Shown here in pieces: positions 1,068 to 29,804 of a stretch of 64,000 bases of DNA. Source of the DNA: a bacterium (GTDB lineage Bacteria; Elusimicrobiota; Elusimicrobia; UBA1565; UBA9628); NCBI GenBank assembly GCA_021799485.1, contig JAJZAK010000009.1, positions 2,850 through 66,849 on the forward strand, in the 5' to 3' direction. A model generated the notes under the pieces. It saw only the letters and a list, made by a program, of their open reading frames with translations. It made no database searches and was not told the origin of the DNA. Made by a program: the position numbers and the translations under genes. Position 1 is the first letter of the stretch. Each line of letters starts with the position of its first letter.

Positions 1068-2400
1068 ACCTGTCGAGCAGTCCCACGAGCTCGACGTGCG
1101 AGGTCTGGGGAAAAAGATCGACGGGCTGGACCTTTGAAAGCTTGAAGCCGAAGCGGCCGGTTTCCTTGGCGTCGCGGGCAAAGGTCGCCGGATCGCAGGA
1201 GACATAGACGAGCCGGCGGATCGCCTGGTGCCTGAGAAGGTTGCGGGCCGCCGGGGAGAGCCCCGATCGGGGAGGGTCGGCGACGGCGGCGACGCGCCCC
1301 TCCAGCCGCTTTGAGAGGCGCGAGACGGCCGCCTCGGTCTTCATCGCCAGAAAGTCGACGTTCGTGACGCCGTTGCGCCGCGCGTTTTTCCACGCATCCT
1401 CGACGGCCGCGTTGTTCTCCTCGACGCCGATGACGGTTCGCACGGCCCTGCTGATCCAAAAAGCCAGCGGGCCGACGCCGCAGTAGAGGTCGAGGGCCAG
1501 ATCGAAGCGCGCCCCGCCATCGCGAAGAAAATCGAGGGCCGTGTCGTAGAGAAGCTCCGCGGCGCCGGAATTCACTTGAAAAAACGAGGCGGGCGAGAGG
1601 AGAAAGGAGAAGGCGCCGAGCTTGGTCTCCAGGGCGTCCGCGCCCCAGAGCTTGCGCCAATGGGGGCCCAGAATAACCGAGCTCTCCTCGGGTTGGGCGT
1701 TGTGGTGGAGGCCGACGATCTCGGGGAAAGCCTTTCGAAGCTCGTCGGATAAAACCATCCCGGAGGGAGGAATCATCCGTGTTTTCGTGACGATCGCCGC
1801 GAGGGCGCGATTCCGGCCGTTGAGACGGATGAGGAGATGCCGGAGCCAGGGGTTGGCGTCTCGCCGGAGGATATCCTTGGCCTTGAGGATGATTCTCACG
1901 GAGAGTTCGGGTTGGACGGCGCACTCCGTCAGATCGACGATGCGGTGGGAGCCCGGAGCGTAGAAGCCGGCGACCGCTCCCGCGCCGAAGGGCACCTGGA
2001 CCTTATTGCGATAGCCCCATTGGCGCGGCGAGGCGATCGTCGGGAGGACGGGGACGTCGTTGAGGCCGGCGAGCCTCTTTAAGCAGTCGACGACGATGTC
2101 GCGCTTGAGACGGAGCTGGGCTTCGTAACCGAGCTGCTGCCAGTCGCAGCCGCCGCAGAAGGCCCGCGCGGATTTCCCGGGCGCGAAATGGAACGGGCAG
2201 CGCGGCTCGATCCTGTCCGGGCCGGGGGCGAGGACCTGGACGATCCGGCCTCGAGCGTAGCTCGATCGTTTTTCGTCGAGCGAAATTTCGAGCACGTCTC
2301 CAGGAACGGCATAGGGCACGAAAACAACGAGGTTCGAAGGCCCCAGCCGCGCGACCCCGGCTCCCTCGGGCGCGATGCGGTCGATCTTGACCTTCGTCAT
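1057..2400 (-). CDS. rlmD: 23S rRNA (uracil-5-)-methyltransferase RlmD/RumA (TRAM domain + Fe-S Cys cluster + SAM MTase)
   Basis: N-terminal TRAM-like segment, CPFHFAPG...CGGCDWQ cysteine cluster, class-I MTase motifs (DLYCGVGPLA, VYVSCDPATFARD). Confidence 0.85.
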   Translation of the reverse strand: MTKVKIDRIAPEGAGVARLGPSNLVVFVPYAVPGDVLEISLDEKRSSYARGRIVQVLAPGPDRIEPRCPFHFAPGKSARAFCGGCDWQQLGYEAQLRLKRDIVVDCLKRLAGLNDVPVLPTIASPRQWGYRNKVQVPFGAGAVAGFYAPGSHRIVDLTECAVQPELSVRIILKAKDILRRDANPWLRHLLIRLNGRNRALAAIVTKTRMIPPSGMVLSDELRKAFPEIVGLHHNAQPEESSVILGPHWRKLWGADALETKLGAFSFLLSPASFFQVNSGAAELLYDTALDFLRDGGARFDLALDLYCGVGPLAFWISRAVRTVIGVEENNAAVEDAWKNARRNGVTNVDFLAMKTEAAVSRLSKRLEGRVAAVADPPRSGLSPAARNLLRHQAIRRLVYVSCDPATFARDAKETGRFGFKLSKVQPVDLFPQTSHVELVGLLDRSKT

Positions 2401-2463
2401 GGCAAAAGAAGGCGACGGAAGGCTATGGAGGGCGATGGAACGAAAAAGCCTTCCGCGGCTTTG

Positions 2464-3609
2464 TCAATCCTCGTCCTTCGCCCCGCGGCGCGGCGGCGAG
2501 CCCGCGGCGACCCAGGAAAGATACTCCTCGATGAAGCCGTCGAGATCCCCGTCCATGACGGCGTCCACCTGCGAAGTCGAATGGCCCGTGCGCAGGTCCT
2601 TGATGAGCTGGTAGGGCATGAAGACGTAGGAGCGGATCTGGCTTCCCCAGCCGATCTCTCCCATGCTGTCGTAGCGGCGCTCCTGAGCGGCCCGCTTCTT
2701 GTCGAGCTCGATCTGATAGAGCTTGGCCTTGAGCATCCTCATGGCGTTGATGCGGTTCTGCATCTGCGAGCGTTCCGTCTGGCAGGCGACGACGAGTCCC
2801 GTCGGTATATGGATGAGCCGGACCGCGGTCTCGACCTTGTTGACGTTTTGTCCGCCGTGGCCGCCCGCGCGAAAGGTCTCGAGCTTGACGTCCGAGTCCG
2901 CGACCTTGATTTCGATATCGTCCTCGATGTCGGCTAGGACGTCGAGGGAGGCGAAGGAGGTGTGACGCCTTTTGTTGGAGTCGAAGGGAGAGATGCGCAC
3001 GAGCCGATGCACGCCGATTTCTCCCTTCAAAAGACCGTAGGCGTTCGGGCCGCGCACGAAGGCGGCGGCGCTTTTCACGCCCGCCTCCTCTCCCTTTAAA
3101 ATGTCGGTGAGGGCGAACTCGAAGCCGCGGCGCTGCGCCCAGCGCGAATACATGCGCAGCAACATCTCGTTCCAGTCGCAGGCCTCGGTGCCGCCGGCTC
3201 CCGCGTGGAAGCTCAGGATCGCATCCGAGCGATCCAGCTCCCCCGAGAGCTTGAGCGTCGTGTCCATGGAGCGCAGGATTCCTTGTGCTTGGGCGAGCTC
3301 CTTGTCGACGATTTTGAGCTCGGAGGCGTCGTCCGCTTCCCGCGCGAGTTCGAGATGAGTCTTTAAATCCTCAAGGCTTTTCCCAGCGCCCTCCCATTGG
3401 GAGAGCGTCTTTTTGAGCCGGTCGAGCTCGGTCGACTTCTTGCGGGCCGACTCGGGGTCGGCCCAGAAACCCGACGCGGCCGACGCAGCCTCCAAAGCCA
3501 GGATGTCGTCCTTGAGCTTTGAGATGTTAAGGAGCTTGCCCAGCCGCGAGTGAAGATCCAAGGCGGCCGCAAGCGCTTGGGCCGTATCCTGGGCTGTTTG
3601 AGGAAGCAT
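2464..3609 (-). CDS. prfB: Peptide chain release factor 2
   Basis: GGQ motif ([26 protein letters not shown]), SPF tripeptide ([20 protein letters not shown]); single uninterrupted ORF. Confidence 0.92.
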
Positions 3610-3610
3610 G

Positions 3611-5178
3611 TTAAGCGCGGCTCCTCAGAAAATTCCTGATGCCGAGCGCCGCCGCCGCGAGGAGGCAAAGCCGGGCGAGCCAATCGCCGTGGCGCGCGTA
3701 AAAGGAGCGCGCGGGAAAGGGATCGGTTTCGGGGATCGCGGCCGAGATGTCCCCGCGCCGACCGAGCCCCAATCGGGCGATGGGAAGGCCCCACGGGTCG
3801 ATCGCGGCGGAAATGCCGGTATTGGCCGAACGAAGGACATAGATCCGGTTCTCGACCGCGCGATAGACGTTCGTCCCGAAGTGCTGGTAGGGGCCCCAGG
3901 TATCCTTATACCAGCCGTCGTTGGTCAGGTTGGCGATGATCCGGGCGCCGCGGGCGGCGTCGAAGCGGGCCAGCTCGGGAAAGGCGGCCTCGTAGCAGAT
4001 GGTGACGGCGACGAGGCCGGCGGCCGTCTTGAGAAGGGGCTGGTCCCTGTCGCCCGGCGTCAGGTCGCCGAAGGTGTTGAGAATGCCGATGAAGCGCTTC
4101 AAGAACTTGAGCGGCACGAATTCCCCGAAGGGCACGAGCCTCCTCTTATGGTAGCGGCCGACGACGCTTCCCGTGGGGGAGACGAGAAGGGCGGCGTTGT
4201 AGAACTCGGCGCCGTCCTCGTCTTGCAGGTAGGAGACGGCGCCGACGAGCTGATCCGCCTTGGGGCGGTCGCCGCGCCCCGTGTGGGGGAGATCCAGGTG
4301 TCCGATGGTTTCATCCACGGCGAAGGGGATGGACGATTCCGGCCAAAGGACGAGGGAGGGCTTAAGAGCGAAGGCTTGGGAGACGAGAGAGGAGAGGATG
4401 CGGGCATTCTCCGTCCGGTAGGCGCCGTCCCATTTGTGGTACTGATCGATATCGGGCTGGAGAATGACGGCCGTCGCCGTCGGGGAGGGGGCGGGCTCCA
4501 GGAAACGGCTGCGATGCGCGAGCTGGGATTTTCCCCAGCAGGCTCCAAGCGCCAAGAAAATCGCCGCGGGGCCGAGTGCCGCGGCGATGGGCGTCCCCCA
4601 TCGCGACCCTCCCCGCCTCGGCCCCTGGTTCCACAGGATTCCAAGCCCCGCGTTGACGGCCAGGATGATCGCTCCCAGGCCGTAGGGCCCTAGGACGGAA
4701 TCCATTTGAAAGAGCGCCGGGTGGCGCCATTGACTGTAGGCGAGAAAATCCGCGGCGAGCCGCGGGGTCAGCCGGTTCCATAGGAAGCTTATCGCCGTCC
4801 AGGCGGCGGCCCAAGACCACGGCTTGATCCACAAGGGAAGTCCCCGGAGGGCCCAGGAGCCGAAGAGGCCGATCGTGGCCCAACTAAGCGCCAGGAAGGC
4901 CGCGAGGGCGAAGAGCGCGACGAGGCCGACGAAGCGGGAGAGATGGGCGAAACGGCAGGTCCAGTAAATCCAATTGAGCGCCGTCGCGTGGTAAGCGATT
5001 CCGGCTAGGAAGCCGAGAGCGGCTCCCCGTCGCGCGGAGGCTTCGTCAAGCGCCGAGAAAAGCGGCGCCAAGGCGAACCAGCCGAGAAAGTTGAGGCCCG
5101 GCTTGGGAAGGCAGAGGGCGAGCGCGGTCCCCGAAAGGAGCGCCGCGGCGGCTTGCCCGCCGGATGGGCGAACCGCGG

Positions 5179-5194
<16 letters not shown>
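3611..5194 (-). CDS. lnt: Apolipoprotein N-acyltransferase
   Basis: Multi-TM N-terminus followed by CN-hydrolase domain (LWPESSIPF..., [14 protein letters not shown]); length 527 aa typical of Lnt. Confidence 0.88.
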
Positions 5195-7911
<2,717 letters not shown>

Positions 7912-7929
7912 GAAAAGGCGGCGAGGCCG

Positions 7930-9141
7930 ATGTTCAAATTATATAAACTATGGACGTTGGCTATTCGCGAAGACGCATTCTTAGAGGGCGGCCGCGTGAC
8001 GGCCGCCGCCGTCCTGCCCCCGATCTTCATCACGACGCACGAGGAACTCAGGGAGGCCGTGGAGGATTTTCGTTCGTCCCCGCGGCTGGCGATCGACACC
8101 GAGTCGAACGGTTTCTACGCCTGGCGAGAGCGGGTCTGCCTGGTCCAAATTTCCACCACGGAGCGCGATTACATCGTGGATCCGCTCGCCGTGAAGGATC
8201 TGTCGCCTCTGCGAGGGGTCATGGCCGAGCCGTCGATCGAAAAGGTCTTCCACGCGGGCGAGTACGACGTCATGTGCCTGAAGCGCGACTACGGTTTCGA
8301 GTTCGTCAACCTTTTCGACACGATGATCGCGGGAAGGCTCCTGGGCTTCAAGGAGCTGGGCCTCGCCAAGCTCATCGAGGCGCACTTCTCGGTCAAGCTC
8401 TCGAAGAAATTCCAGAAGGCGGACTGGGGTCTCCGTCCCCTATCGGCCGAGCAGGTCCGATACGCCCAAATGGACACGCACTATCTTCTCCGGCTCTCCG
8501 AAAGCCTGGAGGCGAAGCTCGCGCGGGCGGGGCGCCTCGAGGAGGCCCGGGAGGCCTTCCGGGATCTGTCCGAGACGGGCCCCCAGTCGCGCGGCTTCGA
8601 CCCGGAGGGCTGGTGGGACATCCGCGGCCGTTCCGCGGCCCCCGACGCGGCCCTTCCCATCCTGCGGGCTCTCTATCTTTTTCGGGAGCGGGAGGCCGAG
8701 CGGCGCGACCGGGCGAGCTTCCGGATCATGCCGGATCATCTTCTGCTTAGAATCGCGGTCGCCGCGCCGCGCACGAAAGAGGATCTCGCGAAAGTTCCTG
8801 GCTTCTCGGAATACCTGCGGCAGCGTTATTCGGGAACTATCCTCGATATCGTCCATAACGCCAGGCATGCGCCGGCTCCTGCCAGGCCCCAACGAGAGCC
8901 CGCGGAGCGCATGAGCGGAAGGGAGCGCAAGCTTCTGGGAGACCTTAAGCTTTGGCGCAAAACCCGCGCCGAGGCGGAGGGCCTTGATCCGGCCGCCGTC
9001 CTTTCCGGGTCCGTCTTGCGGGAGATGGCCTCCCGCGCCGCGAGAGGGGAGTCCGACTGCCTTTCCGCCCTGAGCCCCGCCAAGCGCCGCCGCTACGGCG
9101 CCGAGCTGGAGCGCCTTCTCAAGAGCGCTTCGTCTCGTTAA
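7930..9141 (+). CDS. rnd: Ribonuclease D (DEDDy 3'-5' exonuclease + HRDC domains)
   Basis: LAIDTESNGFY, HAGEYDVMCL, YAQMDTHYLL exonuclease motifs; ORF 7813 trimmed to first Met not overlapping secA start. Confidence 0.8.
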   Translation: MFKLYKLWTLAIREDAFLEGGRVTAAAVLPPIFITTHEELREAVEDFRSSPRLAIDTESNGFYAWRERVCLVQISTTERDYIVDPLAVKDLSPLRGVMAEPSIEKVFHAGEYDVMCLKRDYGFEFVNLFDTMIAGRLLGFKELGLAKLIEAHFSVKLSKKFQKADWGLRPLSAEQVRYAQMDTHYLLRLSESLEAKLARAGRLEEAREAFRDLSETGPQSRGFDPEGWWDIRGRSAAPDAALPILRALYLFREREAERRDRASFRIMPDHLLLRIAVAAPRTKEDLAKVPGFSEYLRQRYSGTILDIVHNARHAPAPARPQREPAERMSGRERKLLGDLKLWRKTRAEAEGLDPAAVLSGSVLREMASRAARGESDCLSALSPAKRRRYGAELERLLKSASSR

Positions 9142-9284: not shown

Positions 9285-10226
9285 CTAATCCGTCAGCTTG
9301 AAGACGAAGGGCTGGGCGATCTTGACCGGGACGGGGCCGGTTGCGTTTTCGGCGGGAGCGAAGCGCATGAGCCGCGCCACTTTTTCGGCCGCGGCGTCGA
9401 AATAGGGGCCCGCCGTCTTCGCGATGTCGATGTCGTGGATGAGCCCGTCGTCTCCGATGTGGAGGTAGAGGTTCACGGTCCCTTCCTTGCCTTCCCGGCG
9501 CTCGTTTTCCGGATAATAGCGCCGCAGGGCGGCTAGAATTTCATTGGCGTTGAGAAGGCGGGGCGGGATGATGATGGGGCCTCCGCCGCCGCCGGGAAGG
9601 CCGGAGCCTTTTCCGAAGGGCATTCCCAGTCCCGGGGCGTTGGAGCTCTTCGCCGATCCCGAGACGGGGCTCGCGACGCCCGCCGCCGGAGCGCCGGAAA
9701 TGAGGCTTTTCGCCGCGGCGGGCATGGCGGCTTGGTTGGCCGACGATTTCGGGGGCCGCGGCGTTGGCGTCGCAATGCGGGCCGGCGACGTTGGAGCCGG
9801 GAGCGTATGGACGGGAAGAGGCGCGGCAGGGACCGATGGCGCCGGAACGCGGGGGACGGATCGCGGCACGGGCGCCGCTGCTTTCGCCGGAGCCGCCTTG
9901 GGCGCGGGAACGGGCGCTTTGGCCGCCGGCGCCGCGGGAGCGGGCTTGGGCGCCTCGGGAACGCCCAGCGGGATGTTGGGTTTTTGGCCGAGTCCCTGCA
10001 TGCCGCCGATGCCGGGCCCGGGGATCGAGGGGATGGTCAGATCGACCTCCACCGGCGGAGGCGCCGCGGGCTGGGGCCACGGCATGAAAAGCAGCGCGGC
10101 ATGCAGGACGACGGAGCCCGCAAGACAGGAAAGAAAAAGCTGCTCGCGGCGGCTGACGCCGCGCCCGTCAAGAAAGCCCGATGCAGTCACCGTCCTGTCT
10201 TCTTCTTTAAGGAGACGAGACCTCAA
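9285..10226 (-). CDS. tonB: TonB family energy transducer (N-terminal TM anchor, Pro/Ala-rich spacer, C-terminal TonB domain)
   Basis: TM helix LFLSCLAGSVVLHAALLF, long PAPAAPAAKAPVPAPKAAP spacer, C-terminal TonB-like fold; downstream of exbB/exbD. Confidence 0.75.
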   Translation of the reverse strand: MRSRLLKEEDRTVTASGFLDGRGVSRREQLFLSCLAGSVVLHAALLFMPWPQPAAPPPVEVDLTIPSIPGPGIGGMQGLGQKPNIPLGVPEAPKPAPAAPAAKAPVPAPKAAPAKAAAPVPRSVPRVPAPSVPAAPLPVHTLPAPTSPARIATPTPRPPKSSANQAAMPAAAKSLISGAPAAGVASPVSGSAKSSNAPGLGMPFGKGSGLPGGGGGPIIIPPRLLNANEILAALRRYYPENERREGKEGTVNLYLHIGDDGLIHDIDIAKTAGPYFDAAAEKVARLMRFAPAENATGPVPVKIAQPFVFKLTD

Positions 10227-10608
10227 GCCCGACGCGGCTGAGCCCTGCTCCGCGGATCGCGTCGAGAACCCGGATCACGTCGCCGTAGCGCGCGCCCTTG
10301 TCCGCGGAAAGAGACACGCGCTGCCCCGGGGCGTTTTTGGCCTGAATCGAAAGAAAGCTTGAGAGCGCCGCCGGCCCGATTCTCCGGCCATGATAGAGGA
10401 CGTCTCCCGCGGCGTCCACGACGAGGTTGATCGCCTGGGGCGCCTCGCGGCTTGAGTGGGCCGCTTGGGGCAAAGCGACCTTGATCGCCCGGCGATGGAT
10501 GAGGGGAGCCGTGGTCATGAAGATGATGAGGACGACCAGCAGAATGTCGACCAATGGCGTGACGTTAATCCCCGTGATGGAGGCTTCGTTGCCGGGGACG
10601 GCGGCCAT
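10207..10608 (-). CDS. exbD: Biopolymer transport protein ExbD/TolR
   Basis: INVTPLVDILLVVLIIFM single TM + periplasmic ExbD fold; 133 aa. Confidence 0.85.
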   Translation of the reverse strand: MAAVPGNEASITGINVTPLVDILLVVLIIFMTTAPLIHRRAIKVALPQAAHSSREAPQAINLVVDAAGDVLYHGRRIGPAALSSFLSIQAKNAPGQRVSLSADKGARYGDVIRVLDAIRGAGLSRVGLEVSSP

Positions 10609-10614
10609 TGCAAT

Positions 10615-10692
10615 GGTGTCAGACTTTAACTTTTTGACTTTTCGAAATGATCATGACATCCGCAAAAAGTCAAAAAGTTAAAGTCTGACACC
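10615..10692. repeat. Perfect 28-bp inverted repeat (arms 10615-10642 and 10665-10692) with 22-nt loop; AT-rich; arm2 contains the exbB stop codon, arm1 ends 6 nt before exbD ATG
   Basis: ggtgtcagactttaactttttgactttt ... aaaagtcaaaaagttaaagtctgacacc read directly from sequence; exact reverse complement. Confidence 0.95.
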
Positions 10693-11283
10693 TCTTAGGG
10701 CCGAGCGGCAAAGGACGTCGGTTTCGGAGAGCAGGTCCCGCGTCTTTTTCTGGAAGAAGTTGAACGCGATGACGCAGGGAATGGCGACGAAGAGCCCCGT
10801 CGCGGTCGCGACCAGGGCTTGCGAGAGTCCCGACATGACCACCTCGGGCCCCGCCGAGGTGATCGCGAGGTCGTGGAAGGCCTTGATGACGCCCAGGACG
10901 GTGCCCAGGAGGCCGATGAAGGGGGCGTTGTTGCCGAGAGTCCCCAGAATCAGCAGGCGCTTTTCAAGGCCCGGCCGCTCGCGATTCGCGGCCTCGTTGA
11001 GGATCTCATCAATCTCTCCGCGGGCGCGTCCCGCCGAGAACGCGGCCCGAGCGACGCGCAGGGCCGCCCCGTCGCCGGCTTGGGCCGCCTTATCGATCGT
11101 TTTCAAGTCCGCGGAGCCCGATTCCAGCGCGGCGGCGAGCCTGTCGAGAATCTTATTTTCGCGATAGAGGACGATTCCTCGCTCGACGATGACCGCGACG
11201 GCCAGGATGGAGCACGCGAGCAATAAATAGATGACCCAATCGCCTCCGGAAAACGCCATGGCCGAGACCAGGGGGACATTCAT
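10678..11283 (-). CDS. exbB: MotA/TolQ/ExbB proton-channel protein
   Basis: Three TM segments, conserved LGTLGNNAPFIGLLGTVLGVIKAF and SQALVATATGLFVAIP motifs. Confidence 0.87.
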   Translation of the reverse strand: MNVPLVSAMAFSGGDWVIYLLLACSILAVAVIVERGIVLYRENKILDRLAAALESGSADLKTIDKAAQAGDGAALRVARAAFSAGRARGEIDEILNEAANRERPGLEKRLLILGTLGNNAPFIGLLGTVLGVIKAFHDLAITSAGPEVVMSGLSQALVATATGLFVAIPCVIAFNFFQKKTRDLLSETDVLCRSALRGVRL

Positions 11284-11295
11284 GGCGGGCTTCTT

Positions 11296-12204
11296 TTATT
11301 GGGTATTTCTTAGGCGTATCAGCGCCGAGCACAGCTCGGCGAGGACCACGGGATGGGTTTCCGTCTGAAGCTGGAGGAAAAGGAGTTGGTAGGTGTTTTG
11401 GTCCCCGATGAGCCCCAGGTAATGAGTCGCCATCGCTCGGACCAGCCAATCCGAGTTCTGATAATAGCTCAGAAGGATGGTCTTCCCGGTGGCGGCGTCT
11501 CCGAATTTCGCCAGGGCGTTCGCCGCGTAAATCTGGAGGATGGTCTCGGGATCCGATTGGGCGGCGGTGAAGACGGCTTGGTGAGCCGCGTCTCCGCCCA
11601 GCAGGGTCAGGGCTTCGATCGCCGCGAATCGCGCCGTCAAATTCGAGCTCGGGTTGAGCGCCTGCTGAAAAACCCCCAGGAATTGGGGGTCTTTCGTATA
11701 GGCCAGGGCGACGATGGCGGACGCTTGGATCTGCGGGTTCGTCGCCGATTGGGCGGTGTTTTGAAGGGCCGCCTGAAGGTCCAGGCGCTTGGCTCCGGCG
11801 AGGCCCTCCGTCAATAGGAAGCCCAGTTGGGTGTAGCGGGTCTGCAAGTTGTATCCATCGATCGTCGTCAGGGACGCAAGGTCCTGGAGAGAGGGATCGA
11901 GGGCATTGGCGCCGGTCGGGCGCTCGGAGGCGTGGTTCTGAAGCAGTTCGAGAAGGTCGGCGTCGATATTGGGGTTGAGGACGGCCTGGGGCGGTATCTT
12001 GAGGCGGGGAGCCGTGATGACGAGGGGGGCGAGCTCGTAGACGGGCTGAGGCGCGGCGGCGCCCTGCGCCGCCGCGCGCAGCGGAAGGCCGCAGAAGGCT
12101 ACGGAAAGCCATGGAAGGAGAAGGAAGGATGATGGCGACCAGCCCCTTGCGTCCTCCGTTGCCGTGCTTGGCCTTCTTTCGCCGTCCGTGACGTTCTTGA
12201 TCAT
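11296..12204 (-). CDS. Secreted HEAT-repeat (PBS-lyase-like) protein
   Basis: Signal peptide then repeated ~30-aa units (ASAIVALAYTKDP..., ARFAAIEALTLLGGD..., QIYAANALAKFGD..., VRAMATHYLGLIGD...) typical of HEAT/PBS-lyase repeats; paralog of the upstream gene. Confidence 0.6.
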   Translation of the reverse strand: MIKNVTDGERRPSTATEDARGWSPSSFLLLPWLSVAFCGLPLRAAAQGAAAPQPVYELAPLVITAPRLKIPPQAVLNPNIDADLLELLQNHASERPTGANALDPSLQDLASLTTIDGYNLQTRYTQLGFLLTEGLAGAKRLDLQAALQNTAQSATNPQIQASAIVALAYTKDPQFLGVFQQALNPSSNLTARFAAIEALTLLGGDAAHQAVFTAAQSDPETILQIYAANALAKFGDAATGKTILLSYYQNSDWLVRAMATHYLGLIGDQNTYQLLFLQLQTETHPVVLAELCSALIRLRNTQ

Positions 12205-13121
12205 AGAGGCTGCTGCGCCGTCGCGGTGGATTTCTTAGGAAAGAGCTTGAGCGCGGCCAAGCAGTATTCCGCCAGGAGAAAATCGTTCTGGCTCGCCTGG
12301 CTGATGAGGGAGACCATGGTGTCATAGTCCTGGGCCGAGCCGTAATTGCCGAGCGCCCGGGCCGCCATCGCCTGGACAACCCAGCTGCCGTTGTTTTGCA
12401 GGCTGTCGCGCAGGGCGGCGAGGCCGCGCTGGCTTCCAAGCCGCGCCATCATCGTCGCGGCGTAAATCTTGAGGATCGGGATATTCTCCTGGCGCATGTA
12501 GGAGTTGAGCATGTGGATCGCCGTCGCCGGGTGTCCCCACACGGCCAAGGCCTCCATGGCGCCAAAGCGCACGGAATGGTCGAAGAATTGAAGGGCCTGA
12601 TCGAACACGGGCTTGTCGTTGAGGTCTTGGCGCTGAGCGAGCAGGATCATCGCCGCCGAGCGCGTCTGGGAATTCTGATCATAATAGGCCGCGGTCTTGA
12701 GCTTCTTCTGGATCATCGGATCGGAGGTGTCGAAGGAGAAAGCCCTGGCCAGCGGGATCCCCAGGTGGAAGTAATAGTTTCTCAGGGCGAAGCCCTGGGG
12801 CGAGCCGACCGTGGCGAGGTCGCCTTCCGGCGTTCCGGCGGCGCCGCTCAGGCTGACCTGAAACGTGTCCTGGTTGTCGAAGAGCTGGAGAAGGGTTTGG
12901 AGGATTTGGGGGTCGACCGGCGTCTGGGCGGCGCCGGCCCCGGGGGCGCTCGCGCCGGGAGCTTGAGCGCCCGCGACCGTCGACGTCGATGCGGCCGCGG
13001 CCCCTACGGCGGAAGCCGATCCGGCGTTCGGGCCGCCCGCGGGCGGAAGCCCCACGCAAGCGCCGAGGCCTATGAGGATGGGGAACGCGAGGGCTTGGGC
13101 GGCTGCCTGGGGCTTGGGCAC
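12201..13121 (-). CDS. HEAT-repeat lipoprotein (lipobox LIGLGAC)
   Basis: Lipoprotein signal MPKPQAAAQALAFPILIGLGAC; repeats (RSAAMILLAQRQD, VRFGAMEALAVWGHP, KIYAATMMARLGS, VVQAMAARALGNYG); 4-nt ATGA overlap with downstream HEAT gene. Confidence 0.6.
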   Translation of the reverse strand: MPKPQAAAQALAFPILIGLGACVGLPPAGGPNAGSASAVGAAAASTSTVAGAQAPGASAPGAGAAQTPVDPQILQTLLQLFDNQDTFQVSLSGAAGTPEGDLATVGSPQGFALRNYYFHLGIPLARAFSFDTSDPMIQKKLKTAAYYDQNSQTRSAAMILLAQRQDLNDKPVFDQALQFFDHSVRFGAMEALAVWGHPATAIHMLNSYMRQENIPILKIYAATMMARLGSQRGLAALRDSLQNNGSWVVQAMAARALGNYGSAQDYDTMVSLISQASQNDFLLAEYCLAALKLFPKKSTATAQQPL

Positions 13122-13200
13122 CCTTCGATTGTAGTTAAACTGTTCGGATCAGACAAGTCAGGGGGCCGCGGAATTCTTTGTTGGCACTCGCCCAGGCCAG

Positions 13201-13232
13201 TTGACAGTTTTGGACGGAGTGTGATAAAATGA
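13201..13232 (+). promoter_or_regulatory. Sigma70-like promoter for groESL (TTGACA-N18-TGaTAAAAT extended -10)
   Basis: TTGACA at 13201-13206, TGATAAAAT at 13222-13230, ~88 nt upstream of groES ATG; no canonical CIRCE found. Confidence 0.35.
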
Positions 13233-15516: not shown

Positions 15517-15788
15517 GCAGGAAAGCCGCTTTTAATCGGGTTTTCTTGTTCGCATCGTTGTTCGCCCGGCGAACAGCTTTCCGGCCGATAAGCTTCTCTG
15601 TTCCGTCCATGGACTCCCGACGGAGCCTCGAACGCCGGCGCGGCGCTCACGCGCCGGCCTGACGACGAGAACGGCGCCTTCAACGGGTTTTGTTCCCCGT
15701 TGATACGCATGGTCCGTTGGGGGCGCAAGCCTCGAAAGGCCCTTCCAAGAATTGGCGGTTGAAGCGGAACATTTGTAATATCCATCGA

Positions 15789-17132
15789 ATGCGAGACAGA
15801 TTCCTCGCGCTCGGCGCCGCCGCGATCCTCGCGCCTCCACTCGCTTTCGCGGCGGCGGCGCCGTCCTCCCAGCTTCCCGCGGCCGCGAAGGCTCCGCCGC
15901 CCGCGTCGGCGCGGCTCTTGAGCTTGTCGGACTGCCTCCGGCTCGCGCTCCGGTTCTCGCCGCAAAGAATCATCGGCATCCTCCAGGCCGAAAAGGCCCA
16001 GAAGGCCCTGAAGGAATGGACGGCCAAGCGCTTGCCGCATCTCTGGGCGTACGCCGCGAACCAGCAGTCCAACGACGCGTCCATTCAGAACATGGCCTCC
16101 AACTACGATTTCATTCACTTGCAACAAGACATCAACCCCTTCGACGCGCTCTGGAAGACCGGAACCCAGCGCCGCCAGGAGCTCGATGCCGCCGTGGCGG
16201 GCCGGATCGCCAGCAAGCTCGACGTCGAGCTCCTGGTCAAGACGCTCTATTTCTCGGTTCTCCAGAGTTCGGATTCGATCGCGATGATGAACCGCGTGGA
16301 AAAGCAGCTCTATCGTCTCCAACTCAGCGTCCTTCCGCGATATACGGTCGGACGGGCGCCGCCGTTCGACCTTCTCAACGTCAGGACGCAACTTTCGGAT
16401 CTCAAGCTTAATCGCGACCTCACGCGAGCCGGCATGAGCGGGGGCCGGGAGCTTCTTGCCTTGATCGTCGGAAAGGCGGGAGGGGATGAGATCATCCTTG
16501 GGCCCATCAAGTCGCTTCCCGCCGTCCCTCCGGACGAGGACGTGCTTCGGAATCCGAGCCTCGAGTCCCTGCGGGCCCAGGTGCGGGCCGCGAAGTGGGC
16601 GCTGCGCGCCCAGCGCGCGGAGTGGCTTCCTCAGATGAGCGTCGGCCTCGACTACGGCTACGGCGGCATCGAGCCCTGGCGCTACAAGAATTTCATGCAG
16701 ACATTCGCTCCTTCCTGGGGGCGCGGGGGCCAGGTGGATCTCAACATCAACCAGCAGCTTTTTAACTGGGGCGAGATCAACGCGCGGATCGCCCAGAGGC
16801 AGAAGGACTTGGACATCGCCCAAATGAACTATAAGAGCCGGTATCAATCCCTGCGCCAGGCTTACGTCTCCGCCCGGATACGCGCCGCCGCGCATCGAAG
16901 CGACGACGAGCGGCGGCGCCATCTCTTCGCGGTCGCCAGGCTCGCGGCCGACACCTCGATCGACCGGTATCAAAGGGAGGCGACCACGATCCTGGAGGCG
17001 GCGGGAGCGGTCTCCTTTTGGATGCAGACCCTCATCACCGAGAGGACCGATTATTATTCCTACCTGACGGACGTGGCCACGATCGAGAGACTGATCGGAC
17101 AGGACGTGGTCGATTACGGGACCGCGCGGTGA
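15789..17132 (+). CDS. Outer membrane efflux protein (TolC family)
   Basis: Signal peptide MRDRFLALGAAAILAPPLAFAAA; two-repeat OMF architecture with coiled-coil-forming segments; first gene of TolC-MFP-RND operon. Confidence 0.78.
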   Translation: MRDRFLALGAAAILAPPLAFAAAAPSSQLPAAAKAPPPASARLLSLSDCLRLALRFSPQRIIGILQAEKAQKALKEWTAKRLPHLWAYAANQQSNDASIQNMASNYDFIHLQQDINPFDALWKTGTQRRQELDAAVAGRIASKLDVELLVKTLYFSVLQSSDSIAMMNRVEKQLYRLQLSVLPRYTVGRAPPFDLLNVRTQLSDLKLNRDLTRAGMSGGRELLALIVGKAGGDEIILGPIKSLPAVPPDEDVLRNPSLESLRAQVRAAKWALRAQRAEWLPQMSVGLDYGYGGIEPWRYKNFMQTFAPSWGRGGQVDLNINQQLFNWGEINARIAQRQKDLDIAQMNYKSRYQSLRQAYVSARIRAAAHRSDDERRRHLFAVARLAADTSIDRYQREATTILEAAGAVSFWMQTLITERTDYYSYLTDVATIERLIGQDVVDYGTAR

Positions 17133-17785
17133 TGAATAAAGCCGGATCTCCGCTCCTTCTTCTGGCGCTCGCGGCGTCCTTCGGATGCGCCGGCTCGGGC
17201 GAGGACACGGGGAAGGCTCCGGAGCTCTCGGACCCTCCCGTGTTGGCCGAGGCCAAGTACGCCAGGATGGACGAAACGGCTCCCGCCTACGGCGTGGCCG
17301 ACGTTGATGAGGCGGGAAATATCGAGATCTCGGTGAACGTCGGCAAAGTGGACGCGAGGGGTGTCCAGATCGGCCAGCGCGCCGTGGCGTGGCAGCTTCC
17401 CGGCGGCAAGCCCGTTCCCTGCGTCGTTCGACAGATTCTCCGCGACGTCAACAAGGCGACCGGGCAGTCGATCGTGCGGCTCAAGCCCGAGACCATCGAC
17501 GGCTTCGTGGCGTGGAGCTTCATCTACGCGGAGATCACGGTCAAATCCCGCCGCGTCCTGGCGGTTCCGAGCGGCGCCGTGCTTGTTCTTAACGGTTCCT
17601 CGGTGGTGGTGCGCGCCACCGGCAAGGACGGCGATCGACAATATAAGGCGGCGCCGGTCGTGGTCAGCGAATATTCTTGGGATCAGGCCGCGATTAAGAA
17701 GGGGCTCAAGCCCGGCGATCAGGTCGTCATCCGGGGAGCCTTGGGCTTTCTTTATCCCGGCTTTGCCGGCGCGGGGAGCGACTGA
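17132..17785 (+). CDS. Short periplasmic adaptor (membrane-fusion-protein-like) lipoprotein, 217 aa
   Basis: Lipobox LAASFGC; C-terminal beta-barrel/MP-proximal like segment (VVIRGALGFLYPGF); ATGA overlap with TolC stop and TGATG overlap with RND start. Confidence 0.55.
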   Translation: MNKAGSPLLLLALAASFGCAGSGEDTGKAPELSDPPVLAEAKYARMDETAPAYGVADVDEAGNIEISVNVGKVDARGVQIGQRAVAWQLPGGKPVPCVVRQILRDVNKATGQSIVRLKPETIDGFVAWSFIYAEITVKSRRVLAVPSGAVLVLNGSSVVVRATGKDGDRQYKAAPVVVSEYSWDQAAIKKGLKPGDQVVIRGALGFLYPGFAGAGSD

Positions 17786-20700
17786 TGTTTGAGAAGTATT
17801 TGAGGGCCTTGCTGCGCCAGCCGGTCGTCGTCGCCGTGACGCTCGCCTGCGTTGTCGCGGCCTGCCTCGCCGCGTCCAAAGCCTTTCAGGTCGACCTGTT
17901 TCCAACGCTTGAATTTCCGGTCTTGAGCGTCGTCGCCCAGGCCCCCGCCTTTCCTTCCCTGGAGATGGAGCGCCAAGTGGCTCTCCCCATTGAAAACGCT
18001 CTCAGCGGCGTCCTGGGGGTTTATCGGGTGCGCGCGGTCATCGCCACGGGCATCGCCAACATCTCGGCCTACTTCCAATGGGGCGCCGACATGCTGTCGG
18101 CAAGGCAGCTCCTGACGCAGGCTCTCTACCGGACGACCGGCCAGATTCCAAGGGACGTCGACGTTTCCGTCGAGAGTCTCTCGGCGACCTTGGGCCTCAT
18201 CGAAAGCTACGCGCTGCGGGGAGGAACGGATCCCGTGGCCCTGCGTGATTTGGCCGAATACGACCTCAAACCCCGTCTCCAGGGCGTGCTCGGGGTCTAT
18301 CGGGTCGTCGTATCGGGAGGGCAAGTCAGGGAATTCGCGGTCTATCCCAACCCCGTGCTCATGATCGAAAACGGCGTGTTCCTCGACGACATCAAGACCG
18401 CCTTGGCTGAAAACAACATCCTCGCCTCGCCCGGAATCGTCAACTCCGGCCCCCAGGAGTTCACCATCACCTCCAACGGGCAGTTCACGGACGCCGCGGA
18501 GCTGGAAAATCTCGTGGTCGCGGTCAAGCAGGGCTATCCCATCCGCGTCAAGGACATCGGGAAGGTCGCCGAAGCCTACCAAATTCCCAGGGACGATTCT
18601 TCGGAGAAAGGGAAGCCCGCCGTTCTCATCAACATTTATAAGCAGCCTCGCTACGACACCCTGTCGGTCGCCGCGGGCGTGAATAAGACCATCCGCGATT
18701 TCGTCAAGAGCCTGCCGCCGGGATACACCGTCCATAACTATTACGACCAGGCGCAGCTCGTCGGCGCTTCGATCGGGAGCGTCAAGGAGGCCGTTTACGT
18801 GGGCGGAATCCTGGTGGTCATCGTTCTGGCGCTTTTCCTGCGCGACTGGAAGACGACCCTGGCCGCGATCACGAGCATCCCGATTTCGATCATCGCGGCG
18901 TTGGGGCTCATGCGCCTCTTCAAGGTGGGGCTCAATATCATGTCGTTAGGGGGCCTCGCCGTCGGCACCGGCATCATCGTGGACGACGCCGTGGTCGTCC
19001 TCGAAAATATCTTCCGCTGGCTCTCGGCCCGGGAGGAGGGGTCGGGACTTTCCTCCCGGGACGCGATCGTCGGCGCCGCCCGCGAGGTGGTCCGGCCCGT
19101 CGTCGTTTCGACCTTGACCAATATCGGCATCTTTCTTCCCATGGTCTTCATCGCCGGCTTCGCGGGGCGGCTTTTCGCCCCGATCGGATTGACCGTCACT
19201 TTCGCGCTGTTGGCGTCGCTTGTGGTGGCTCTGAGCGTCATCCCTTTGCTGGCCGACCAATGGCTCACGCAAACTCATTTAAAAGAAAATGATGCGTGGG
19301 TCAACCGTGTCTATCAGAAGCCCTTGGGCTTCGCTTTGCGGCGGCCCTACGCCGTCATCGGCGGGGCCGTGGCCTGCGTCGTCCTGACGGTCTTCGCCTT
19401 CAGGCATCTGGATCTTGAATTCCTTCCCTCGCTCGACGAAGGCGCCGTTCTCCTCAACACCGCCATGCCGCCGGGCACCTCCCTGGCGGAGACGAAGCGC
19501 GTGGGCGTCCTTTTCGAGAAGTGGCTGGCGCAAATGCCGGGGGTCGTCACGGTCGCGAGGCACACCGGACACGCCGCGGGGACTCTTGATGTCGACGGAG
19601 TCAATCACAGCGATGTGACGGTCAAGCTTCTGCCCAAGAGCCAGCGGCCCATGCCGATCGAGTCCTTCCTCTCGCTCTTGCGGCGGAAGAGCCGCGATCT
19701 CACCGACGTCCAAGTCGAGTATCTGATGCCTTTGGAGGACAAGATCAATGACGCGATGGGCTCCACCCCCTTTGACATCGGGGTCGCGTTCTTCGGCGCC
19801 GATCTGGATGAGCTGCACCGCTTCTCGGCGGGCCTGCTGGCTCGGATGCACCATATCAAGGGACTCATCGACGTCCATCCGCCCGACGACAAGCCCCTCC
19901 CGGCCGTGACCGTGCATATCGACAAGGCGGCTGCCGGAAGGCTGGGGATTCCGGTCCGTTCCGTCTTCGACGCCCTCCGCGCCGCGTCGCAGGGGCTGAC
20001 GGCCACGGCGGTGCGGCTTGTTTTTAAGTCCGTCGGCGTCGTGCTTCATCTCGTTTCGCCCAACGGACAATTCAACGCCAGCGCCATGGGCGACCTGCCC
20101 TTGCGCTCGGTGGTCGGGGACGCCGTCCCGCTCGAGCAGGTCGCGGAGATCGGCTATGGCGAGGTTCCCAGCAAGATCTACCACGAGCACCTGCAGCGCG
20201 AGGTGATGGTTTCGGCCAACATTGAAAATCGGAACGTGAGGGACGTCGCCTCGGACCTCGCCAAGGCGGTGGCCGAGATGAAGCTTCCGGCCGGTTATAC
20301 GTGGACTTTTACCGGCAAATACAAGTCCGAGACGGACATGCTGGGAAACATGGGCGTCGTGCTTCTTTTGGCCGTGATCATCGTGGCCGTGATCCTGTGG
20401 TTTGAGTTCCGTTCCGTCATCCAGACCCTCTTGATCCTCTCGGCCGTCCCTCTGGCGGGAGTCGGAGCCTTCGCGAGCCTTTGGATCGGCGGGCAATCGA
20501 TCAACGTCTCCTCGATGATCGGCGCGATGATGCTGATCGGCATCGTCGTGCGCAACGGCATTCTGATGCTCGATTACATGAACGCCGGTTTGGCCGCGGG
20601 CCTGGACGTCAAGGAGGCGGCGGCCCAGGCGGCGCGTAAGCGCGTGCGCCCGATCCTGATGACGGCCAGCATGACGATCCTGGGGCTGGTGCCGATCGCC

Positions 20701-20853
20701 GCCGGGTGGGGCACGGGCTCCGAGCTTCTCCGGCCCCTCGCGATCGCCGTCATCGGCGGCATGCTCCTATCGACCTTGCTGACTTTGGTGGTCCTGCCCG
20801 CCTCCGCCGTCGCTTGCGCACGCTGGATCAGACCTGCCAAGTCGGCGGAATAG
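17785..20853 (+). CDS. RND superfamily efflux transporter (AcrB/CzcA/CusA family; possibly heavy-metal-efflux subgroup)
   Basis: 1022 aa, 12-TM architecture with two large periplasmic loops, conserved TM4 region ...GIIVDDAVVVLENI... Confidence 0.9.
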   Translation: MFEKYLRALLRQPVVVAVTLACVVAACLAASKAFQVDLFPTLEFPVLSVVAQAPAFPSLEMERQVALPIENALSGVLGVYRVRAVIATGIANISAYFQWGADMLSARQLLTQALYRTTGQIPRDVDVSVESLSATLGLIESYALRGGTDPVALRDLAEYDLKPRLQGVLGVYRVVVSGGQVREFAVYPNPVLMIENGVFLDDIKTALAENNILASPGIVNSGPQEFTITSNGQFTDAAELENLVVAVKQGYPIRVKDIGKVAEAYQIPRDDSSEKGKPAVLINIYKQPRYDTLSVAAGVNKTIRDFVKSLPPGYTVHNYYDQAQLVGASIGSVKEAVYVGGILVVIVLALFLRDWKTTLAAITSIPISIIAALGLMRLFKVGLNIMSLGGLAVGTGIIVDDAVVVLENIFRWLSAREEGSGLSSRDAIVGAAREVVRPVVVSTLTNIGIFLPMVFIAGFAGRLFAPIGLTVTFALLASLVVALSVIPLLADQWLTQTHLKENDAWVNRVYQKPLGFALRRPYAVIGGAVACVVLTVFAFRHLDLEFLPSLDEGAVLLNTAMPPGTSLAETKRVGVLFEKWLAQMPGVVTVARHTGHAAGTLDVDGVNHSDVTVKLLPKSQRPMPIESFLSLLRRKSRDLTDVQVEYLMPLEDKINDAMGSTPFDIGVAFFGADLDELHRFSAGLLARMHHIKGLIDVHPPDDKPLPAVTVHIDKAAAGRLGIPVRSVFDALRAASQGLTATAVRLVFKSVGVVLHLVSPNGQFNASAMGDLPLRSVVGDAVPLEQVAEIGYGEVPSKIYHEHLQREVMVSANIENRNVRDVASDLAKAVAEMKLPAGYTWTFTGKYKSETDMLGNMGVVLLLAVIIVAVILWFEFRSVIQTLLILSAVPLAGVGAFASLWIGGQSINVSSMIGAMMLIGIVVRNGILMLDYMNAGLAAGLDVKEAAAQAARKRVRPILMTASMTILGLVPIAAGWGTGSELLRPLAIAVIGGMLLSTLLTLVVLPASAVACARWIRPAKSAE

Positions 20854-28803: not shown

Positions 28804-29804
28804 GGCATGGAGAAGGTTTGAGACGGTTTCTTGGGAAGGTTAAAGGTCAAGCTCACGAAGCTTTCCGTACCCAGAACCCCCATCGGCACGAAGGCGTAAT
28901 CGATCGAGAAGCCCTTGAACTTGATCCCGAGGCCGGCGCTGACGGCCGACAGAACCCCCAAGCTCGATAGGGTCTCGGTGTTAAATCCCGCCCGGACCGC
29001 CCCCGAGATGTCGCGGTCGAAGTCGGCGGTGTATTCGGTCCCCACGGCGGCGAAGGCGGGGCTGTAGTTCGGCAAGGTCACGTCGCAAGAGACGAGAAGA
29101 GGCCTCCAGGGCCGCGCCGCGCCGCCCATCTTCGCTTGGAAGGGAAGGGGCTCTTGGGTTTGGACGAATTTGGGGCCGGAGCCGATGTTCTGCGCGGACA
29201 CGGCGAGGGTATAGGGGAACAGCCCGCGTTCGAAGCGCGCCATGGCCCCGATGTCGGCGCCGTAGCCGGTGGCCGTCATAAGATAATCCGAGTGGATGTA
29301 GCGGAGGGTGGCGCCTAGGTCGACGGACATGTCTCCGGAGGACATGTCGTAGATGTCCGATCCCCAGCCGAACTCGGCCACGAGGTTGTTGGGATTAAAG
29401 GTGCCGAGAGAGTTGTTGTTGACGTCCGTCTCCTGGACCGAGCCCAGGTTTTGATAGCGGAGGCCTCCGGCCAGGACGTCGAAGTCGCTGACCCGTTGGG
29501 CGTAGTTGGCCGCCTGGTAGTTGATGCCCGCGACCTGGCTTCCGTACATGAAGCTGCCGGAGGCGCGGGGAATGAGGGCCAATCCAGCGGGATTCCAAAA
29601 AATCGAATTCGAGTCGTCGGTGACCGCCGTCATGGCGCCGCCCATGGCGATGCCTCGCGCTCCGACGCCCATGAGAAGAAAATCGTCGGATGTCGTTCCG
29701 ACGCTTTGGGCATTGAAAAGGCCCGCTACGGCCGGGGGGCCCGGAGCGAGGAGGGCCAGAAGACAAAGCGAGAGAATCCGCGGGGATAAGGAGCCTAAAG
29801 TCAT
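28800..29804 (-). CDS. PorV/PorP(SprF)-like FadL-type outer-membrane beta-barrel
   Basis: Signal peptide, then ...LLMGVGARGIAMGGAMTAVTDDSNSIFWNPAGLA motif characteristic of PorV/PorP/FadL-like barrels; C-terminal ...LTFNL aromatic/hydrophobic barrel end; ATGA overlap with upstream giant CTD gene. Confidence 0.55.
   Translation of the reverse strand: MTLGSLSPRILSLCLLALLAPGPPAVAGLFNAQSVGTTSDDFLLMGVGARGIAMGGAMTAVTDDSNSIFWNPAGLALIPRASGSFMYGSQVAGINYQAANYAQRVSDFDVLAGGLRYQNLGSVQETDVNNNSLGTFNPNNLVAEFGWGSDIYDMSSGDMSVDLGATLRYIHSDYLMTATGYGADIGAMARFERGLFPYTLAVSAQNIGSGPKFVQTQEPLPFQAKMGGAARPWRPLLVSCDVTLPNYSPAFAAVGTEYTADFDRDISGAVRAGFNTETLSSLGVLSAVSAGLGIKFKGFSIDYAFVPMGVLGTESFVSLTFNLPKKPSQTFSMP

Follow-up and report, generated by a model that had tools for sequence, protein, structure and literature searches.

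A conserved cluster of two HEAT-repeat protein genes and an ExbB-ExbD-TonB motor in Elusimicrobiota, with a TonB-box-like motif in one of the HEAT proteins

A stretch of 64,000 nucleotides from an Elusimicrobiota genome (GenBank assembly GCA_021799485.1, contig JAJZAK010000009.1, positions 2,850 to 66,849; here called the window, whose numbering we use unless another locus is named) carries five tightly spaced open reading frames (ORFs) on its minus strand, running from position 13121 down to 9285 in the order HEAT-A, HEAT-B, exbB, exbD and tonB. The Pfam matches of all five proteins exceed the curated cutoffs. HEAT-A (12201-13121, 306 aa, GTG start; HEAT_2, 47 bits) is a HEAT-repeat lipoprotein and HEAT-B (11296-12204, 302 aa; HEAT_2, 67 bits) a secreted HEAT-repeat paralog; exbB (10678-11283) encodes a proton-channel subunit of the ExbB/TolQ family (201 aa; MotA_ExbB, PF01618, 109 bits, cutoff 22.9), exbD (10207-10608) a 133-aa subunit of the ExbD/TolR family (PF02472, 104 bits) and tonB (9285-10226) a TonB-type transducer (TonB_C, PF03544, 57 bits) that is 313 aa long when read from the TTG at 10226 or 301 aa when read from the GTG at 10190, the gene call of the Joint Genome Institute (JGI) being 301 aa. 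The original prediction for this locus described two secreted paralogous HEAT proteins, one of them with a lipobox, overlapping by ATGA and lying directly upstream of exbB, exbD and a tonB-like gene in the same orientation, and all of this description held. The conservation of the arrangement among related species, together with a TonB-box-like motif in HEAT-B, makes the HEAT pair a candidate client of the motor encoded with it.

The cluster was scanned in one genome per species of the Genome Taxonomy Database, giving 80 loci in which gene order was determined by tblastn with the window proteins. The order and strand of HEAT-A, HEAT-B, exbB, exbD and tonB were the same in 76 of the 80, with median gaps of -1 nt between HEAT-B and exbB, 3 nt between exbB and exbD and -4 nt between exbD and tonB. 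Three exceptions (L027, L028 and L084) are loci in which the contig ends just after HEAT-B; the fourth, L082, is taken up below with the points that count against our interpretation. Relatives with as little as about 41-45% identity still show the linkage, with other genes on either side. Given that 76 of 80 species keep the arrangement with such short gaps, the adjacency of the HEAT genes to exbBD-tonB is not a matter of chance, and the five genes behave as one unit. Synteny in relatives had been proposed as a check on the original prediction, which was to be doubted if the HEAT genes were not conserved next to exbBD, and the outcome of this check was in its favor.

The family is narrowly distributed. 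A HEAT-B identical to that of the window was found, in the same gene order, on a JGI metagenome contig and in several Logan assemblies. A collection of 5.8 billion proteins held 87 HEAT-B relatives whose source names are all Elusimicrobia but one, a 3.9-kb contig labelled Methylomirabilota that we take to be mislabelled, and the named loci among the 80 are all Elusimicrobia/Elusimicrobiota. A HMMER search with the 86-residue N-terminal module of HEAT-B against 1.84 billion cluster representatives returned only 36 clusters, all with lengths typical of either the split form (about 270-300 aa) or the fused form (about 500-590 aa), indicating that this module is a narrow, lineage-specific invention. 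The most divergent member, at positions 7200-10850 of L082, has a degenerate version of the motif described below (LEPLVIVPPQLR), and its fused HEAT gene is followed, in place of exbB-exbD-tonB, by two unrelated ORFs, one Gly-rich and one LemA-like as judged by eye.

HEAT-A and HEAT-B are 29% identical over 229 aa (E = 3e-18), and the TGA of HEAT-A and the ATG of HEAT-B overlap as ATGA. HEAT-A consists of a signal peptide with an LGAC lipobox (L19-G20-A21-C22, codons at 13056-13067 on the minus strand), an Ala/Gly/Pro-rich tether of ~45 residues, an adaptor module (DPQIxxxLxxL ... GFxLRNxY) and HEAT repeats. HEAT-B consists of a Sec-type signal peptide, whose hydrophobic segment ends RAAA/QG and carries no lipobox, a short motif-bearing linker, an adaptor module of its own (TGYxLxTRYTxLGFLLTEGLAG) and HEAT repeats. 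Of the HEAT-A orthologs drawn from the 80 loci, 75 have complete N-termini; a strict lipobox is present in 68 of these, and another six place a Cys directly behind the hydrophobic core. Downstream of the Cys runs a low-complexity tether, 17-43 residues long (median 30). Asp was found at position +2 in none of the 68 scored orthologs, from which we infer, by analogy with the sorting rule of E. coli, that HEAT-A is anchored in the outer membrane. Pfam detected no OmpA-like domain in HEAT-A.

In 26 loci, about a third of the species, HEAT-A and HEAT-B are a single ORF in which a Pro/Ala-rich linker joins HEAT-A to HEAT-B; the signal peptide of HEAT-B is gone, but the TonB-box-like motif is still present in the linker. 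Species with the split form and species with the fused form are intermingled (fused loci include L009, L018, L019, L037, L040, L041 and L045, around 7000-8750), and with one fusion, P0091, as the query about 85 further fused proteins were found. The AlphaFold2 model of the fusion, built on an alignment of 83 sequences, reached a mean predicted local distance difference test (pLDDT) score of 89.1 and a predicted template-modelling score of 0.87 and shows two all-helical repeat domains in a confident mutual arrangement, with disorder only at the tether (residues 1-33) and the linker (residues 270-290). When the window HEAT-B was modelled alone (pLDDT 75), residues 1-61 were disordered and the HEAT part scored above 90, but the adaptor module (residues 98-124) stayed below 50. 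Within the fusion this module scored above 90, the two runs differing in alignment depth. Since the module is well predicted in the fusion and poorly in HEAT-B alone, the models suggest that the N-terminal module of HEAT-B packs against HEAT-A. Together, the translational coupling of the two genes, their fusion in about a third of the species and the compact model of the fusion show that HEAT-A and HEAT-B act as a unit.

Comparison of the fold with structures in the PDB returned generic alpha-solenoids only, at template-modelling scores of 0.2-0.4; among them were alphaRep, the PP2A A subunit, importins and MpeQ, a bilin lyase of the E/F type in a single chain. The NCBIfam models NblB, CpcE and CpcF scored 14-34 bits against cutoffs of 220-330, so that none of these family models was passed, and the HEAT-B family alignment revealed no conserved Cys/His or other obvious ligand-binding signature.

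The linker of HEAT-B carries a short motif, LAPLVITAPR in the window (residues 58-67; 12004-12033, minus strand), that stands out by its conservation. Its consensus, LEPLVITAPR, is nearly invariant in the disordered linker just before the HEAT-B fold, which in fusions is the linker between the two domains, and the motif is present in all 81 HEAT-B family members examined while its flanks are variable. By column, 71 of 75 sequences have L at the first position, 71 have E or D at the second, 65 P, 72 L, 63 T, 74 A, 71 P and 73 R at the conserved positions that follow. Both AlphaFold2 models, of the fusion and of HEAT-B alone, place the motif in a disordered segment, and the motif lies near the mature N-terminus. 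Scored with a log-odds matrix made from the ten core motif columns, the window motif reached 23.2 bits; no other position of the window, in whichever frame, exceeded 13.0 bits, and no second strong copy was found there.

The same matrix was run over the ORFs of all six frames in six 49-kb stretches of the E. coli K-12 genome, which contain btuB, fhuA, fepA, cirA, fecA and the tol-pal operon. Out of 246,703 positions scored, the second-best was the TonB box of BtuB, PDTLVVTANR. In four transporters, BtuB (position 25), FhuA (39), FepA (33) and CirA (30), no other 10-mer anywhere in the protein scored as high as the TonB box. We estimate the chance of matching four of five proteins at a site specified beforehand at about 1e-11, from about 1/700 per protein. 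In TolB the best three positions (376, 400 and 199) scored 1.0-3.1 bits and none was N-terminal, the N-terminus of TolB being its TolA-binding end. A 24-column HMMER profile of the motif run against all PDB sequences gave only an irrelevant match to SLX4, the filters of HMMER being ill-suited to short motifs. Given that the motif is short, disordered, near the mature N-terminus and TonB-box-like, it has the properties of a docking strand, and we regard it as a putative counterpart of the strands of TonB clients, the likeness being one of sequence only; by its statistics the motif cannot be told apart from enterobacterial TonB boxes such as those of BtuB, FhuA, FepA and CirA.

The motor encoded downstream of the HEAT pair is of a known type. 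The ExbB-like subunit matched solved TolQ with 66 bits and solved ExbB with 44 bits; solved ExbD and TolR matched the ExbD-like subunit about equally; and the best NCBIfam models for the two subunits were tolQ and tolR, below cutoff. A protonatable Asp in the membrane helix of the ExbD-like subunit (TPLVDILLVVLIIF) was read directly from the sequence. The TonB-like protein of the window has an S-x3-H membrane helix (SVVLHAALLF), a Pro/Ala-rich and then Gly-rich spacer and a TonB C-terminal domain with a YP motif (residues 236-311; 9294-9521, minus strand), which was found by Pfam and by profile search and is presumably the module that binds the motif. Its orthologs have a P-x-E-x-D-L-T segment after the membrane helix, followed by Pro-rich and Gly-rich spacers and the YP-motif domain, and most of those displayed keep the S-x3-H and the spacer. 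A PDB search with the single C-terminal sequence found no match, whereas a profile of 20 orthologous C-terminal domains matched 16 distinct solved TonB domains, the best with E = 1.6e-8, and TolA only with E = 0.3, indicating that the domain is not of the TolA type. The cluster thus encodes the channel subunit of the MotA/ExbB/TolQ family, the ExbD/TolR-family subunit with its Asp and the TonB-type transducer expected of a Ton system, and the machine can be described as a TonB-type transducer on an ExbB/TolQ-family motor. The beta-barrel transporter of such a system is missing from the window: the HEAT pair is all-alpha in the models, and the previously unidentified window ORFs of at least 500 aa that were scanned include no TonB-dependent transporter, in agreement with the original statement that no TonB-dependent receptor is adjacent. 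An anti-phage function of the Zorya type was rejected, PADLOC having returned only ZorA2 (E = 0.0013, 15.7 bits) over a generic channel segment and generic HEAT-ARM matches.

The surroundings of the cluster are less constant. In the window, groES-groEL is transcribed divergently from the HEAT operon, a neighborhood confined to the closest relatives, and beyond tonB lie an RNase D-like gene, convergent with it, and then secA. About half of the loci (about 27-34 of the 56 with sufficient upstream sequence; in L017 at 2225-6932) have instead a co-directional upstream block of hemE (URO-D), protoporphyrinogen oxidase, MgtC, RlmN and an apparently cytoplasmic protein of ~172 aa that has no signal peptide and no family match; in the window lineage the divergent groES-groEL takes the place of this block. 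A link to heme was considered and rejected, because the hemE block is conserved housekeeping synteny, with MgtC, RlmN and the ~172-aa protein in between, and is absent from the window. Neither tolB nor pal was found downstream of tonB in the window or at L075, where tonB is followed by a small ORF, two membrane-protein-like ORFs on the opposite strand and, further on, RNase D. No genes for a type IX secretion system (T9SS), gliding or pili are conserved near the cluster, nor are any for a transporter, a binding protein or an ABC importer.

Back-to-back promoter-like sites for the HEAT operon (minus strand) and groES (plus strand) lie within 13122-13230. The former is a sigma-70-like match just upstream of HEAT-A (TTGTCT-17-TACAAT, 13128-13156) and the latter, divergent from it, lies at 13201-13230; both are matches to the consensus. 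The GTG start of HEAT-A at 13121, which is abutted by GAAGG, is only 6 nt past the second hexamer (ending at 13128). Because only 6 nt separate the two, the start of either transcription or translation of HEAT-A is uncertain, and the transcript may be nearly leaderless or the promoter call may be wrong.

The spacer between exbB and exbD is filled in the window by a perfect, AT-rich 28-bp inverted repeat (10615-10692; arms at 10615-10642 and 10665-10692) that has no other copy in the window. The transcript would fold here into a hairpin (-49 kcal/mol, z = -9.4), and 6 nt separate its end from the ATG of exbD. At 69 nt, from the stop of exbB to the start of exbD, this spacer is the longest of 75 loci, the median in relatives being 3 nt. 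The repeat was not found at any other species' locus, and an exact scan of metagenome contigs for the palindrome gave zero matches. It looks like a recent strain-specific insertion, not a feature of the family, and might dampen the expression of exbD-tonB in this strain.

The large ORFs of the window outside the scan for transporters were identified as SecA, GroEL, an Lnt-like protein and a resistance-nodulation-division (RND) pump. The RND efflux operon comes right after groEL (15690-20853, plus strand) and encodes an outer-membrane factor (OEP), a 217-aa protein and a 1022-aa ACR_tran pump; the 217-aa protein occupies the position of a membrane-fusion protein and has no Pfam match. A 1425-aa Kelch-repeat protein (Kelch_4, 181 bits; 29801-34078, minus strand) forms an unusually large bacterial beta-propeller array, and a 536-aa ORF (45225-46835, minus strand) has no Pfam match at E <= 0.001.

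The known TonB-type transducers act on barrel transporters, and their TolA cousins act on TolB; recent surveys hold that there are more clients to discover. With the classical Ton system the cluster shares the three motor and transducer parts, the ExbD Asp, the S-x3-H helix and Pro-rich spacer of TonB and a TonB-type C-terminal domain, as well as a motif that resembles the boxes of BtuB, FepA, FhuA and CirA and that is, like them, disordered and near the mature N-terminus. It differs in that the classical client is a 22-strand barrel with a plug, whereas the candidate client here is a lipid-anchored, all-helical HEAT pair encoded in the motor operon, and in that the channel subunit is more TolQ-like. 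The likeness to Tol-Pal is that the motor operon encodes a pair of clients (here candidate clients), one of them a lipoprotein and the other soluble with a docking strand at its N-terminus, and that Tol-Pal too has a helical-repeat partner (CpoB, with tetratricopeptide repeats, TPR). Here, in contrast, the client genes come first in the operon, neither a beta-propeller TolB nor an OmpA-like Pal is encoded with the motor, the transducer domain is TonB-type, the motif is unlike the TolB N-terminus and the clients are sometimes covalently fused. The comparison with CpoB/YbgF drawn in the original prediction stands only loosely, given that the transducer is not of the TolA type and that a separate tol-pal operon whose TolA is Pro-rich and whose CpoB is lipidated has been reported in Elusimicrobia (Williams-Jones et al. 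2025, PMC12204202). The same survey of Ton/Tol operons describes transducers with a vWA domain that have TolQR-like motors and an adjacent TPR gene, proposes PorE to be a fused CpoB-TolB-Pal lipoprotein and expects further Ton/Tol force-transduction systems to await discovery. Its systems resemble the present one in that 5:2 motors serve envelope functions other than transport, with helical-repeat partners and fused lipoprotein clients; they differ in that a normal TonB domain is kept here and the novelty is in the client. The survey makes no mention of HEAT-repeat partners or clients, and the full-text literature searched contained no account of a HEAT-ExbB-ExbD-TonB arrangement, the sole match being an unrelated table of a Bacteroides iron stimulon, so that the claim that the arrangement had not been described still stands.

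Two further systems offer partial parallels. CpcE and CpcF act as heterodimers, and E/F lyases are cytoplasmic cyanobacterial enzymes that act on phycobiliproteins. The HEAT pair has in common with these bilin lyases and NblB the HEAT_2 repeats and the adjacent, sometimes fused paralogs, a shared architecture that is not evidence of the same function; it differs in that its members are exported proteins of a non-phototrophic phylum with a lipobox and a TonB-box-like motif and score far below the family cutoffs. In the TonB2 system of Vibrio, the extra genes of TtpB, TtpC and TtpD, the last a TPR protein, are co-transcribed with exbB-exbD-tonB and needed for function; these accessories serve classical transporters and, to our knowledge, have not been reported to carry a TonB box. 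A different association of HEAT proteins with Ton-dependent uptake is found in Bacteroides thetaiotaomicron, where the iron-regulated cluster BT1933-39 is listed with genes for a TonB-dependent receptor, a DUF4876 protein and a protein that has a HEAT repeat domain (PMC10434189).

Given the TonB-box-like motif in the HEAT-B linker, the TonB-type domain of the transducer and the absence of a transporter, TolB or Pal among the genes found nearby, we read the HEAT pair as a dedicated client of the co-encoded motor and not as an accessory of it, a reading that we put somewhat above even. With the same modest preference we propose that the products of the five genes work as a single force-transducing machine in the periplasm and that its client is a clamp of HEAT repeats, not a beta-barrel transporter. 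In this machine HEAT-A would tether the pair to the outer membrane, and the C-terminal domain of TonB would bind the motif by beta-strand augmentation, as it does the TonB boxes of transporters. The motif, which in fusions sits exactly at the hinge between the two domains, would then be pulled at the expense of the proton-motive force, peeling the N-terminal module of HEAT-B off HEAT-A or stretching the solenoid, and the opening of the clamp would release, capture or reposition a partner in the envelope. Since natural covalent fusions are viable, force would probably open the A-B pair and not free HEAT-B to diffuse, unlike what happens with TolB and Pal. An envelope tether or mechanical switch is the most likely physiological output, and the hand-over of a ligand, which we rank below it, is also possible.

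The original prediction had the HEAT pair as an accessory that anchors the motor, for example to T9SS or gliding machinery. In general form this idea holds that the pair takes no force from TonB and fixes ExbBD-TonB at an envelope structure (for instance peptidoglycan, a pilus, or an apparatus for secretion or gliding) while the real clients are encoded elsewhere, and we consider it unlikely, though less so than the ideas that follow. Tight linkage and translational coupling would fit a scaffold, which HEAT and TPR solenoids typically are; TPR partners of Tol/Ton-like motors are known, namely CpoB and the products of the TPR genes beside vWA transducers (PMC12204202); and our scan for transporters was confined to the 64-kb window. 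A scaffold, however, gives no reason for the strongest conservation outside the fold to fall on a TonB-box-like strand within a disordered linker, and it is for this conserved motif that the evidence favors a client. No transporter, tolB or pal turned up in the window or beside tonB at the inspected locus L075, and the lack of conserved T9SS, gliding and pilus genes near the cluster leaves the suggested T9SS/gliding link without evidence. Less likely again is a tethering role like that of Tol-Pal, in which HEAT-A would stand for Pal and HEAT-B for TolB and the motor, by mobilising or concentrating the lipoprotein, would keep the outer membrane stable or constrict it. The logic of a lipoprotein adjoining a soluble partner with an N-terminal docking strand is the same, the channel subunit is TolQ-like, and compact or fused solutions of this kind have been proposed, as for PorE (PMC12204202). 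But HEAT-A lacks a peptidoglycan-binding domain of the OmpA type, it is TonB boxes that the motif matches while the N-terminus of TolB is not among the top positions of that protein, and covalent A-B fusions argue against a cycle of mobilisation and release. The TonB-type transducer domain and the canonical tol-pal operon with CpoB reported in Elusimicrobia (PMC12204202) speak against the idea as well and, with the TolB result, also weaken the notion that the cluster replaces Tol-Pal in the phylum.

We find it improbable, and a little more so than a Tol-Pal-like role, that the A/B solenoid is a ligand-handling clamp that holds a small ligand or a substrate-loaded partner, either in the periplasm or at the outer membrane, until TonB force frees the ligand for import. 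Uptake is the canonical job of Ton systems, the pair recalls CpcE/CpcF-type lyases in being adjacent paralogs with occasional fusion, and both the weak NCBIfam matches to NblB, CpcE and CpcF and the appearance of MpeQ among the fold matches point the same way; yet this likeness is generic to alpha-solenoids, as the template-modelling scores and the distance from the family cutoffs indicate, no obvious ligand-binding signature was found in the HEAT-B alignment, and no importer or binding protein is conserved nearby. That the HEAT proteins do something unrelated in the periplasm, their genes only sharing a transcript with those of a generic Ton motor, is disfavored as the least probable of these explanations: the fused HEAT gene of L082 does lie away from any exbBD-tonB, but linkage in 76 of 80 species of genes that overlap or abut, with flanks that change, and the TonB-box-like motif in HEAT-B are difficult to reconcile with unrelated neighbors.

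Several observations weigh against reading the HEAT pair as a client of the motor. L082 is the one true exception to the linkage, its fused HEAT gene being away from the motor. The motif matrix missed the TonB box of FecA and gave those of FhuA and CirA only about 6 bits, and the motif appears to resemble one flavor of TonB box only; it could moreover bind another partner, such as the periplasmic domain of ExbD, HEAT-A or an outer-membrane protein. The ExbB-like subunit of the window is nearer to TolQ than to ExbB. The placement of HEAT-A in the outer membrane relies on the sorting rules of E. coli, which are perhaps not those of this phylum, and classical transporters encoded elsewhere in these genomes may share this TonB, in which case the HEAT pair could be a regulator or a competitor and not the main client.

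If the HEAT pair is indeed the client, the novelty would be a new class of client within Ton/Tol-type periplasmic force transduction, the motor and the transducer being of known type. More tentatively, and with less confidence than we give to the client reading itself, we suggest a third class of TonB/TolA-type system, confined to a clade of Elusimicrobiota, in which the motor pulls a lipoprotein-anchored HEAT clamp by means of a bona fide TonB box. Were this so, the HEAT pair would be the first endogenous client of a TonB-type transducer that is neither a barrel nor TolB, and an elastic helical-repeat protein would serve as a mechanical switch or a trans-envelope tether. A TonB motor hard-wired to a helical-repeat client would widen the uses of periplasmic pulling driven by the proton-motive force. 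The five genes would make a compact, possibly reconstitutable system for force transduction on a non-membrane client, whose HEAT solenoids suit single-molecule mechanics. For annotation, a non-barrel protein whose gene adjoins exbBD-tonB can be flagged as a candidate client if it has a short TonB-box-like strand at its N-terminus. The cluster also has a bearing on the diversification of Ton and Tol systems in a diderm phylum that branches deeply.

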